DNA of 64,000 nt, taken from IMG/VR virus record IMGVR_UViG_3300037067_007156, positions 429,519-493,518 of that record. One strand, given 5' to 3'. This document shows positions 57,168-63,981 of this stretch, piece by piece. Every line of letters begins with the position of its first letter. Position 1 is the first letter of the stretch. Source of the DNA: a virus. Lineage: Duplodnaviria; Heunggongvirae; Uroviricota; Caudoviricetes. The position numbers and the translations under genes were made by a program. The notes beneath the pieces were generated by a model. That model saw nothing but the letters and a program-made list of their open reading frames with translations. It was not told the origin of the DNA and made no database searches.

Positions 57168-57518
57168 ATGATAACTGAACAAGATTTACATGAATACAAT
57201 AAATGGCTTATGGAAGTATGGAATCCGAACCAACTTTATATACCATTTGGAATAGATGCACCAAGAGCTTTTTTAACCTACAAAACTAAGGTTAAAAATT
57301 TGGATATACCACGTGTTATAAACTGGGTGGCGGTAAAAGATAAATTACCACCAAGACCAGATGAAGATTATTTAGTAGTAATGCGTAACAAGAATAAGGA
57401 GGGCGGAATTGCTTTGCAGGATGTTAAAAACTTTACAAGTGATGGAATTTGGGTAGGTGGTAATAATTGGGAAGATGTTGTGGCGTGGGCTGAACTTCCT
57501 GAGCCGCCTTGTTTATAA
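57168..57518 (+). CDS. two-part protein with C-terminal DUF551-like domain
   Basis: WVAVKDKLP...YLV...VVAWAELPEPP begins immediately after the GTT junction at 57315. Confidence 0.75.
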   Translation: MITEQDLHEYNKWLMEVWNPNQLYIPFGIDAPRAFLTYKTKVKNLDIPRVINWVAVKDKLPPRPDEDYLVVMRNKNKEGGIALQDVKNFTSDGIWVGGNNWEDVVAWAELPEPPCL

Positions 57519-57597
57519 TGTCCGCAGGTATGGTTAGTTGCATGTTGAATAACCAACTAACTTTAATACGAGTGATAAACTTTAAAATATAGAAATA

Positions 57598-57873
57598 ATG
57601 AGCGATTTTAAACCAACACTTAAACAAATTGAGTTATATAAGGAACTCAGGAAAATAACAGAACCACATCACATGTATGCAGACCAAATAATGGCTATTG
57701 CAGAATACATAGATGCTGAATTTATACACAAAAGTAAAGCGAATGGTGTTAATACGAGTGAAAGGCAATTAACTATACCTGATGTTAGCAATCAGGTTTG
57801 CCAACATCAAAAACGCCAATGGATACCAGAACTCAACAAAGATTTATGCTTAAACTGTGGAACGCTCATTTAG
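57598..57873 (+). CDS. two-part protein with C-terminal CxH...CxxC mini-domain
   Basis: CQH...CLNCG segment begins after the GTT junction at 57784. Confidence 0.65.
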   Translation: MSDFKPTLKQIELYKELRKITEPHHMYADQIMAIAEYIDAEFIHKSKANGVNTSERQLTIPDVSNQVCQHQKRQWIPELNKDLCLNCGTLI

Positions 57874-58016
57874 GAAAACTTGTTGCTAACATGTATATAT
57901 AAATTTTACATTTTAACTATTTGATTTATAAATAATTAGTTTGATATATTTTTAAAGATTTGGCTTGAATTTAATAAAACATGGTGCGTGATTATCTCAA
58001 TTAAAAAATGAAATAA

Positions 58017-58239
58017 TTATTTCTTATTAAACTTCAACCAAGATTTAACCGCTTCTTCTTGTGTCTTTTTAAATTTATGTGTAGCTTCAGGTGAAAGGTC
58101 ACCAGTTTTTATTTCTGGAAAATTTTTAGCTATAACAGTCCAAAATGCGTCATCTGCATCTTGTATAATTTTATCTAAATCAACACCATCTGAATTATTT
58201 TCCTTTATGATAATTATTAAATGTTTTAATTTTTCTCAT
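58017..58239 (-). pseudogene. frameshifted ORF with MRKIKTFNNY N-terminal motif
   Basis: One extra base near 58210 separates MRKIKTFNNY from IKENNSDGVDLDKIIQDADDAFW...KFNKK. Confidence 0.6.
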
Positions 58240-60584: not shown

Positions 60585-60665
60585 CTACTTATTTTTAATA
60601 ATATATATTAAATTAAGTATGATTTTTTTTATAATAAAATTTATTATAAATTTGAAAAAAAAATT

Positions 60666-61178
60666 ATGAGATTAATTAGAAAATTAAAAATATTGTTTAG
60701 TAAAACTGATAATGTTTTTGAAGATGTTTTATTAAAAAAAATGACAATGGCATTATTAAGCGATATTGAAAAATTAAAAGATATTCAACAAAATCCTCAG
60801 TGGCATATCGAAAACGATGTATATACACATACGATGGTTGTTACGAACCGATTACATAATAAATATCATAATATAAATCTCACGTTATCGGGAATATTTC
60901 ACGACCTTGGTAAGTTTGATACCACCAAATGGGATGATAAAAAACAATCTTGGACTGCATTTGGTCACGAGGATTTTTCAATTGATTATGTTGAAAAACA
61001 TAAAGATTGGATTAAAAAAATGGGTGGAAATGTTGAAAAAATAAAATATATCACTGCAAATCATATGCGTATTAAATTTATAGATGAAATGCGAAAGAAA
61101 AAACGTAGAAAGTTTGAAGCTGAGAAATGGTTTCATTTGGTTGTTAAATTTAAAGAGTGTGATAAAGGTGGTTTTTAA
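60666..61178 (+). CDS. HD-domain phosphohydrolase
   Basis: QNPQWHIENDVYTHT, FHDLGK, GHE, NHM, CD. Confidence 0.85.
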   Translation: MRLIRKLKILFSKTDNVFEDVLLKKMTMALLSDIEKLKDIQQNPQWHIENDVYTHTMVVTNRLHNKYHNINLTLSGIFHDLGKFDTTKWDDKKQSWTAFGHEDFSIDYVEKHKDWIKKMGGNVEKIKYITANHMRIKFIDEMRKKKRRKFEAEKWFHLVVKFKECDKGGF

Positions 61179-61889
61179 ATATAACAAACATGAGTAATAT
61201 ACATTATAGAGTTGATAATGGTTTTTTTTATAAGATTGTTACATCAAGTAAGAAGATTTATAAGATAACGGTAGATGATGTTGAATCTCTTGATTTTGAT
61301 TCTAATTTTGAAACAGTTAAGAATTTCAAACCTTTGAAAAAAAATGATTGGAATTCTATGCAAAACCATTTTTTCATATCAAGAGATTTTGAATGGGTTT
61401 ATGATGGAATTTGTTATATGACAACTGGTAAAAAAATTCAATATAATGCTAATGGTGTTTTATCCCCATCCGCTTTGGTGTTTCATAATGGGTTGGTTTG
61501 GGAAGCACGTTATTCAGGAAATTATTATCCAAGAATGTGGTTAACTGCTAAAGTTAAACGCACAAATAAAGAGACTGGTGAAGTTAAAATAGTTGAAATA
61601 AATAAATGGACTGATGAAAAGTATCTTCGTGCGTTTGAGAAAGCTCCAGAATTTAAACAACGGGCGTTGAAAATAAAAGAAATATTTAATGATTGTTTTG
61701 ATTTATAATGAAACTTAAAAGAATTATTTTTGATTAAATATGATTTTAGATTTTGAAAAACCAAAAAAAACCCGTTCTACTGAGGAACATAATAATATGT
61801 TTTCTTCGGATAAACGATATAAAATAAAAATGAACAAAACTTTAAACAAAAAATTAAATACACAGCAAGAACAATTAGATATCCATGTT

Positions 61890-63981
61890 GTTATTGGCAG
61901 TTTTGTTAAGTTTTACGACTGTCAACAAGCAAATAAGGATAGAGATTTTTCAGGAGCAAACCCTAAATATTACCCTATTGGTAAAGTAATAAATGTTTAT
62001 GATTATAAATCAACATTTGGTTATACAGATAGGGTTTGTGATATACAAATAGGTGAACGCATTAGCAAGTCTCATTTTATAAGAGGTGTTGAAATTATTT
62101 CTTAAAAATATCTATAACGGTTGCTATAATTAAATTTATTATGACATTAGTGAATAGTTTAAAAGCGGAAATTGGCGATACGTTAATTGCTAATTATAAC
62201 AACGGAATTTGGGAAAAAAATGATGTTTGTATATTAATCGAAAAATCACCTGAATATGAAAAATGTACTGAAGGTCAATTTTTTAATAAGACAAAAAATA
62301 TAATACACGGTGGTAATATTCAATCATTTCAATATTACAATAAACGTTGAATGTTGGTGTATTACTGCACTGAACTTAATTTAAAATATACACTTAAAAA
62401 TATGAACAAAATTATAAATGAAACAAAAGAGAAACGCACTATACAACGAGATAGCGAACGTGAAAAAAAATTATTTATTGGGCTAAACAACTGGAACATA
62501 AATCTCTATCGCTACATGAATTAGTTGAAAACGCTAAGTGGTTATTAGACCGTGTTCGTTAATGGTTGAAAAATATAAAATGTCTATTAAACAAAACTTA
62601 AATGGAAAATCTTGAAATGTTAAAATGTATGTCTGTTGATGAAATGGTGAAAGTAGTTAGTAATTTATCTAATGTTGATACAGCATTGGATATTATTAAC
62701 AAAGGAAAACGTAACGAAAAAGTAGAACTTGAATGGGTAGGAGATAAATTGCGGTTAAAAAATTAAATTAAACACAACGATTGAGTATTGGCGTTGTTGT
62801 CATTACAAAAATAAATTAATAGTATGAAACATAAAATCATGAAAACGTTTGAAGAACACTCATCAGAATTGAATATATCTGATGTTATTAGAGAGAATAA
62901 AAATTATGATTACATCATAGTAAAAATCAAATCTGGTGCAAATTGTCCAAAAAAATATTGGAATAAAAAAGCAGTTTATGATAAACGAAATAAATACATG
63001 TTAGAATATAATAAAGGATTTGATTTGTCATATGGTTCTGTATTCATGGTAAATCCAAATGAAAAGGATTTTGAAATCGAATAATTTTTATTCTCTATGG
63101 CAAGTTATAAAACGTTGCCAATTTAGAAGTACAAATGTTTAATTTAAAAATAAAAGTTGATATGGAATACAAAATTCAAATAACCGATGAAGCTGGCAAT
63201 GTCCATTTATACAATGTTACCCGTAGTTCTTCTGAACCAAAATCGTTGAATGACTTCATTTTAGAAGCGTTACAAATTTCAGAAGATAAACGAAAGCTAC
63301 CATTTATAATACAATGTCCGAATGGATTAGAAGTACACCCTTTAATTAAAATGAAGTTTGAAAACTATGGTTCTCCAATATTGGGTGATAAGTTAGAAGC
63401 GATGCACGTAACTTGGCGTGATTAGAATTACGACTAACAGTTGCAAATATAAAACGTTTTAAAACAGAACTTGAATAGAATCAATAATATAACAATTAGT
63501 ATGAATTTTATTTTGAAATATGAATAAAATGTTTTATAATTGCTTTTATAAGTAGTAAAATAAAAATCAATCTAAAAAAAATAATTATGAAAATTAAAGG
63601 AATAGTAACAAGAATTGATTCTGCTTGTTGGTCAGATGATAGAGGTAATGATAAATATGGTTATGTTTTTTATGTAAAATCAAAAGATACTGGTTTTGCT
63701 ATAAATAAAAAAACAAAGAGTGGTATTATTTTTATGAATAACATTGACAAAATATTGAATAATGAAATTGAATTTATATGTGATGAATTTGGTTATAGTG
63801 TTAAATTAACAAAACAAACTATTGATAATCTAAATTAATTTTTGTTTAATTACTTATAACGGTCGAGTGTAGTACAAGTAAGGGATTGCGGATTGCAAAC
63901 CTTTCAAACTATACCGACCAACAAGCGGGCTACAGCGCTTCAAATTTGCAGTAAAACCCTTATTGGTGCTACACTTTGTTA
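61890..63981 (+). mobile_element. chain of integron-cassette-like modules (cluster B), partly decayed and running off the window end
   Basis: Cassette-end inverted repeats and bulged hairpins at 62884/63081, 63106/63194, 63216/63424, 63443/63525, 63545/63849, 63866/63957. Confidence 0.7.
63857..63981 (+). repeat. best-preserved attC-like hairpin
   Basis: TAAC-GGTCG-AGTGTAGTACAAGTAAGGG ... CCCTTATTGGTGCTACACT-TT-GTTA. Confidence 0.75.

Follow-up and report, generated by a model that had tools for sequence, protein, structure and literature searches.

The 64,000-nucleotide window analysed here (positions 429519-493518 of a 639,979-base virus record, genome G000, which has direct terminal repeats and a G+C content of 25.7%) contains six open reading frames (ORFs) that run in frame through the end of a hairpin site, together with two clusters of such sites at 57122-57890 and 62775-63981 (positions are those of the window unless stated otherwise). 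Both clusters are CALIN-like (clusters of attC sites lacking integron integrases), with at least two attC-like sites within a few kilobases and no intact integrase, and they work like CALINs. Each of the six ORFs joins an N-terminal head, or leader, to a C-terminal body. They probably belong to an inverted, non-IntI integron-like system, in which genes start in their own sites and the halves are re-paired at a valine codon, and the cluster in this genome is a decaying relic in which the genes have been kept.

A preliminary description of this DNA had noted that the junction GTT is an in-frame valine codon in six ORFs, and this was confirmed for all six (ORFs 20915, 57168, 57598, 61740, 62824 and 63135, at offsets of 42, 147, 186, 150, 60 and 81, with the G of GTT at 20957, 57315, 57784, 61890, 62884 and 63216). 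The true starts of two of them are likely to be 61830 and 63162, not 61740 and 63135, and the frame is the same either way. Recognizable domains had been placed directly after the junction, and DUF551 does begin there, from residue 53 of ORF57168 (23.5 bits against a cut-off of 22); it was the sole accepted match in Pfam and PHROG scans of the junction ORFs, the weak matches of the others being disregarded. The shared peptide LxIxxV had been read as the translation of a DNA motif, TAYA-N5-TGTTA, which proved to be the true 3'-arm consensus of a hairpin family (of 205 sites, 96% have T at −15, 97% have A at −7 and 98% have T at −1); the motif itself was found at four of the six junctions, and was absent from 61890 and 63216. 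A paired hairpin was retained at 57315 and 57784 only, the other four sites having decayed by loss of the 5' arm (20957), by unpairing of the arms (62884), by loss of TAAC (63216) or down to the 3' arm alone (61890). The features are listed in Table 1.

Table 1. Hairpin sites, cassette bodies and related features of the window
Feature	Position	Strand	Remarks
Decayed short hairpin site (TAAT...GTTA)	20798..20884	+	G at 20881
Orphan leader and 3' arm (5' arm lost), with ORF 20915-21115	20886..21115	+	Val GTT 20957
Cassette body that has a start of its own (ORF 56950-57108) and ends at a decayed AAC junction	56916..57124	+	Motif at 56906
Long hairpin A1, 193 nt, TAAC decayed to TAAA	57122..57318	+	Loop: ATG and 49-aa head of ORF 57168
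Body B1, DUF551 half without a start, closed by an inverted repeat of its own	57315..57519	+	Stop codon inside TAAT
Long hairpin A2, 268 nt	57516..57787	+	Loop: ATG and 62-aa head of ORF 57598; site score 68
Body B2, start-less 29-aa Cys/His half with its own inverted repeat	57784..57890	+	Arms 57782-57804 / 57870-57892
attI-like array end, then decayed first codons of recombinase gene	57887..57975	+	Profile marginal, alignment clear
Leader remnant and body, 5' arm lost, Val GTT 61890	61830..62105	+	38 homologues: same body, other heads
Decayed hairpin with ORF 62824, whose 20-aa leader ends in LNISD; Val GTT 62884	62775..63084	+	Arms fit profiles, pair poorly
Decayed hairpin (TAAC lost), leader from 63162, Val GTT 63216, body end TAAC 63435	63099..63438	+	89% to L115
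Hairpin with degenerate GTTA end, without leader	63435..63551	+	
Intact 121-nt hairpin without in-frame leader	63857..63981	+	Site score 72

The hairpin family was characterized in 80 viral loci holding relatives of a tyrosine recombinase, using a site caller that selects on arm pairing. The hairpins run from TAAC to TGTTA, fall into size classes of about 85, about 120 and 150-270 nt, and have an asymmetric inner loop of about 5 by 1-2 nt; 230 lie upstream of the recombinase gene and four downstream, nearly all on the same strand. Their form is that of attC-type hairpins with AAC/GTT core boxes, and in 60 aligned sites 93% of the stem cells were paired, with double changes in 16 of 23 pairs, both properties being read in sites that had been chosen for pairing. 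Within the window, the arms of A1 (57129-57151 and 57290-57312) are 87% complementary and fold, and they covary in L002, L090, L098 and L112. Bodies, which extend from GTTA to the next TAAC, carry a terminal inverted repeat in 153 of 194 cases; the corresponding counts were 16 for the two sides of a single hairpin and 14.7 by chance, and such paired ends are as expected from a circular unit of head and body. Of 177 phage bodies, 136 have the ORF on the strand that folds better; of 44 bacterial bodies, 40 have it on the opposite one. Counted by site, the ORF strand was the better-folding one in 228 of 259 phage sites, and it carries the conserved G-T pairs. Profiles from the recombinase-side arrays were used for scanning, replacing generic inverted-repeat scans of the genome, which were too noisy, and detected five sites scoring at least 40 in the genome, two of them in the window, compared with none in three shuffled genomes. 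An Rfam scan of 56000-64000 gave no match. In host loci (L154, L155, L158, L162 and L187; Flavobacterium and others), the arrays of 122-nt sites lie on the downstream side of the recombinase gene; their ORFs point the same way as that gene, the end of which is overlapped by an attI-like palindromic stretch.

The recombinase relatives are mostly full-length, Xer-like proteins of 266-269 aa. Their best structure and family match was archaeal XerA-like (PDB 4A8E; NF040815) at 183 bits, under the cut-off of 220, and the scores for TIGR02249 (IntI) were 154 and 96.5 bits against a cut-off of 265. The IntI insertion of about 48 residues (I2 helix) is absent, residues 180-217 of the query spanning residues 181-266 of IntI4; judged by these alignments, the recombinase is not an IntI. 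Most of its 80 genome matches come from Bacteroidota; on this basis, and from the Draconibacterium record noted below, the host is likely to belong to that phylum. Directly before the recombinase gene, an AAC-TAT..TATA motif (a loose pattern) was found in 47 of 51 loci.

No intact recombinase gene was found in G000. The sole tyrosine-recombinase match (PF00589; genome positions 206020-206439) covers the catalytic part only, following a stop codon and beside a hairpin, and a second remnant is the decayed gene start at 57887-57975, which aligned locally with four of five intact loci at scores of 61-67, compared with at most 47 for 300 random stretches. This remnant follows the array at 56916-57890, which ends in a motif of the AAC-TAT..TATA type; the attI-like site had the top profile score genome-wide, a marginal one of 15.0 against 14.5 for the next. 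The working domain-shuffling engine envisaged in the preliminary description is thus not active in this genome, its recombinase gene being broken, and, as most sites are decaying too, shuffling here is likely to be past or to rely on an enzyme of the host or of a co-infecting phage.

Movement of whole units could be followed in cultured relatives, since the phages Freya, Leef and Ingeline encode this recombinase. We compared the array regions of Polaribacter phage Freya isolates 1, 2, 5, 6, 8 and 9 with that of Freya_10 (of the ten isolates, 3, 4 and 7 were left out); all six are near-identical to Freya_10 apart from exact units. In Freya_9 the missing unit is an AAC-to-AAC segment of 307 bp, corresponding to a leader hairpin and its in-frame body; isolates 1, 2, 5 and 8 lack longer AAC-to-AAC stretches, and isolate 6 has one extra unit. 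All seven junctions lie at AAC and none at GTT. The attI-like site of the examined loci likewise joins at AAC, and five of the Freya deletions or insertions end at it. In pairs from the recombinase-side arrays, hairpins never shared their upstream neighbour (0 of 70) and shared the downstream body in 4 of 62; starting from the body, the hairpin was shared in 4 of 10. The 55 near-identical hairpin pairs differed upstream in 53 cases, and downstream 19 were the same, 25 unrelated and 11 between. The cassettes had been described as carriers of half genes, unlike those of classical integrons, but the units carry whole genes, head and body. Such cassettes are gained and lost at the AAC end, head and body as a rule moving together, so that swapping of halves at GTT is likely to be a second, rarer process.

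The products of that second process were seen in homologues of the window ORFs, where, as predicted, the same head occurs with different bodies and vice versa, with the break at the valine. Among 80 homologues of ORF57168, 40 matched the head only, 37 the DUF551 body only, two both and one neither; the valine was present at the junction in 31 of the 37 body-only homologues, and an LxIxxV-like end in 26 of the 40 head-only ones. The 17 homologues of ORF57598 comprised six with the head only, eight with the body only and three with both, and one head of this ORF also occurs in a Draconibacterium record. For ORF61830, the body was common to all 38 homologues, with valine at the junction in 22. 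Three loci, L138-L140, have the 14-aa leader of ORF20915 in front of methyltransferase-like bodies; the match extends to GTTA and unrelated sequence follows (71 of 75 nt identical to L139). The methyltransferase labels of L138-L141 are presumptive, from characteristic motifs and likeness to P12002L proteins. A leader related to that of ORF63135 carries another body in L075. The search of viral contigs with ORF62824 detected no relative of its body; its region (62775-63084) is 74% identical over about 100 nt to a site of L060. Partner families numbered 33, 28 and 36, and one body was found with about 28 unrelated heads, these counts being rough, as short peptides split easily. A tblastn search of cultured phages with ORF57168 gave no match, and an Atlas search with its head gave a best value of 0.84, which serves as a lead only.

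The breaks are also visible in DNA, where identity profiles between loci drop or start at TGTTA (79 and 10 pairs) and at TAAC (121 and 15 pairs). Four other runs yielded contigs with an end at 57124, 57784, 57789 or 57890: those of two runs match the window to 57124 and continue into other hairpins, one piece starts at 57784, and two stop at 57890. Other levels of exchange were observed as well. One loop gene occurs in three arm types, and one 3' arm occurs with two unrelated loop genes (L002, L090, L098, L112 and L238 compared with 57122-57318), so that loop cargo and hairpin arms appear to be exchanged separately. P0005 and P0080 share with 57315-57518 the first and last residues, which come from the inverted repeat of the body, and have a different DUF551 core; exchange inside the body thus appears to be a further level. 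The head of ORF57168 also stands alone, as a gene of 41-47 aa without a hairpin, in L003, L103, L106 and L108; in L003 it lies in a stretch (5650-6340) where successive small ORFs are linked by recurring copies of a short AT-rich junction, overlapping their stop and start codons, possibly another gene-array system.

Read-through was scored where a loop ATG remained open through at least 25 codons, and frames are given in the order 0/1/2. Phage sites gave 76/6/23 of 178 medium sites (95-140 nt) and 20/0/1 of 32 long sites (more than 140 nt), compared with 3/1/2 of 80 short sites and 5/3/1 of 73 bacterial sites; when sites whose core imposes a stop were excluded, the counts were 22/5/7 of 74 and 10/2/1 of 24. 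A frame-0-open body followed a leader hairpin in 99 of 123 cases, against 29 of 165, and both bodies stayed open in 22 of 23 swapped leader-bearing pairs. For the head of ORF57168, the ratio of nonsynonymous to synonymous polymorphism (pN/pS) was 0.18 over 14 sequences, indicating purifying selection. Taken as a signal in sequence, the frame is under selection, and translation would begin at the loop ATG.

Integrons, as described in the accessible text of PMC2727003 and PMC5027507, are alike in their tandem cassettes bounded by imperfect AAC/GTT hairpins, in a tyrosine recombinase beside an attI-like site, and in the exact gain and loss of units at AAC of the strand that folds better; cleavage by IntI takes place within AAC of the bottom strand, and recombination of top strands is lower by a factor of 1,000-10,000. 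In contrast, the phage recombinase is without the IntI insertion, the inner loop of the phage hairpin is asymmetric, the phage ORFs lie on the presumed reactive strand and start inside the site, and the bodies carry long terminal inverted repeats. The integron layout, with the ORF on the top strand and the whole gene outside attC, prevails in the host arrays, and the inverted one in the phage arrays. Qi et al. 2023 described CALINs in virulent phages, including Polaribacter phage P12002L, and IntI1 did not recombine P12002L_attC1 (PMC9892861, accessible portion). That site (30038-30058, ORF strand) has the TAACG...TGTTA form of the present family, and P12002L has read-through leaders; the same portion of the paper names no cognate recombinase and does not mention 'in-frame' or 'start codon', and the accessible part of the Freya paper (PMC8776804) mentions neither integron nor cassette. 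Translation through attC is documented, in the excerpts available, for a single clinical case, the gcuF1-blaOXA-28 fusion (PMC3375312), and for synthetic coding attC peptide linkers, with attC-mediated shuffling of protein modules proposed as an engineering goal (PMC7439510); there the ORF comes from the upstream cassette, not from the loop, and those excerpts describe no natural fixed-frame family. Unlike archaeal XerA-like recombinases, the phage enzyme has cassette arrays next to it. Promoter early stem-loops of T4-type phages are regulatory hairpins with small-gene modules reshuffled by homology; hairpins and modular shuffling of small genes are alike, but in-frame heads and a site-specific core are not known there. 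No printed account of a self-starting hairpin cassette design was found in a search that left subscription papers mostly outside.

Based on these observations, we consider it probable that the window holds a relic of integron-like cassettes of Bacteroidota phages, where the start of each gene lies inside its hairpin and reading proceeds via GTT in frame, whole units move at AAC, and re-pairing at GTTA is a second process, likely on the opposite strand. The Xer-like recombinase of about 267 aa beside the arrays would do the cutting. By analogy with integrons, which react via the better-folding bottom strand, the ORF strand would be the folded, reactive 'bottom' strand, and the phage genes would be inverted relative to host arrays; an inverted gene begins beside its own hairpin, so that the loop could supply the start codon. 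As a best guess, the opposite strand of the hairpin would be cut at G|TT, giving in-frame chimeras. An extension that we put forward tentatively, inclining against it, is that one recombinase uses both hairpin strands, one to reorder whole genes and the other to swap selected heads onto start-less bodies in a fixed frame, as a combinatorial protein library, with one head family, which mimics the N-terminal K-x-F-E/N motif seen in jumbo-phage proteins, serving as a packaging or targeting tag for new cargo. T4 internal proteins have capsid-targeting N-termini, which the motif M-K-x-(I/L)-K-x-F-E/N recalls. This motif starts 16-18 proteins of G000, including that at 58241-59313 (minus strand), and leaders of the LNISD type, such as that of ORF62824, resemble it; on contigs of at least 100 kb the counts were 4 of 6, compared with 8 of 39 other leaders (p 0.035).

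Several points weigh against the reading favoured here. Since the site caller selects on pairing, the covariation of the stems is partly built in. Some of the phage sites were gathered via read-through proteins, the less biased set giving 46/5/21 of 140, and frame 2 is used as well, in 23 of 178 medium sites. The locus pairs in the identity and neighbour counts are not independent, and the leader of ORF63135 has the same body in 18 of 23 loci. A GTT-only exchange was unseen in the Freya isolates, and none of the 55 near-identical hairpin pairs had kept the upstream side and changed the body. Bodies differed in 52 of 62 leader-sharing pairs, which exceeds the expectation for a very rare reaction, and cassette assembly may therefore explain much. 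Contigs of the likely source run contained no excised circle, contigs being prone to drop rare forms.

There is a real possibility, somewhat short of even, that heads are mostly neutral donors of a start codon and that chimerism has no functional meaning, as leaders of 14-20 aa are exchanged freely on methyltransferase-like bodies and some body homologues carry just a few residues before the valine; the constraint on the 49-aa head of ORF57168, and its existence as a stand-alone mini-protein, do not fit this. Assembly of new cassettes is a serious rival to the opposite-strand step, although we judge it rather unlikely: GTTA re-pairing would occur when cassettes are made, not moved, reusable hairpins being attached to new bodies, or loop genes captured, by some assembly route or by phage homologous recombination at the conserved arm, with selection keeping the in-frame joins. 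It would account for one head in three arm types and also alone without a hairpin, for phi13:2, which has the same 3' arm with a different loop gene, for bacterial arrays in which one hairpin likewise occurs with many bodies (38 of 44 pairs), and for a recent GTT-only event not having been caught, but it fits poorly with about 28 unrelated heads on one body and with breaks in a 5-nt core, too short for ordinary homology.

The preliminary model, in which G|TT is the routine crossover and every excision or insertion event creates a new pairing of head and body, agrees with the breakpoints at TGTTA, the many pairings and the frame held in swaps, but it is largely refuted by the Freya units and by joining of the attI-like site at AAC, and, as no pair (0 of 70 and 0 of 5) had the upstream body still attached to the hairpin, we regard it as very improbable. 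Chance, the motif and its frame arising from codon usage of an AT-rich genome alone, describes the bare motif well, yet for the six junctions as a group it is refuted and close to nil in view of the high-scoring hairpin sites and the homologue breaks at valine, most weakly so for 62884, for whose body no relative was detected in viral contigs. The bare TAYA-N5-TGTTA motif occurred 71 times in the 640-kb genome, compared with 53-62 in five order-3 Markov simulations and with 77 for the same motif with an N8 spacer. In the genome-wide tally over 884 ORFs, the frame-0 bias was present (29/3/4) but not in excess of codon-shuffled controls (26.8/3.3/3.7); since bias and controls match, this test is uninformative, and bare-motif counts and frames, at chance level, were rejected as evidence.

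If our preferred reading is true, that of in-frame hairpin cassettes re-paired at GTT, natural recombination sites encode protein, hitherto an engineering goal in the accessible text of PMC7439510, and many small orphan genes of Bacteroidota phages would have a concrete source. It also suggests a widespread non-IntI cassette recombinase missed by current integron tools. Freya on Polaribacter offers a cultured model with a visibly active system, in which the joining of hairpins to new genes, which bears on the open question of cassette origin, is testable.

Elsewhere in the genome, the first 100 bases recur at genome positions 639729 and 639872, forming a short tandemly repeated terminus. A domain scan detected a T4-type terminase domain at 23806-26055 of the window, in a terminase-like protein with a middle part that exceeds the length implied by the Pfam match. 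Direct duplications of about 30 nt lie at 56290-56400, at the end of ORF 55852, and at 56510-56590, inside ORF 56476.

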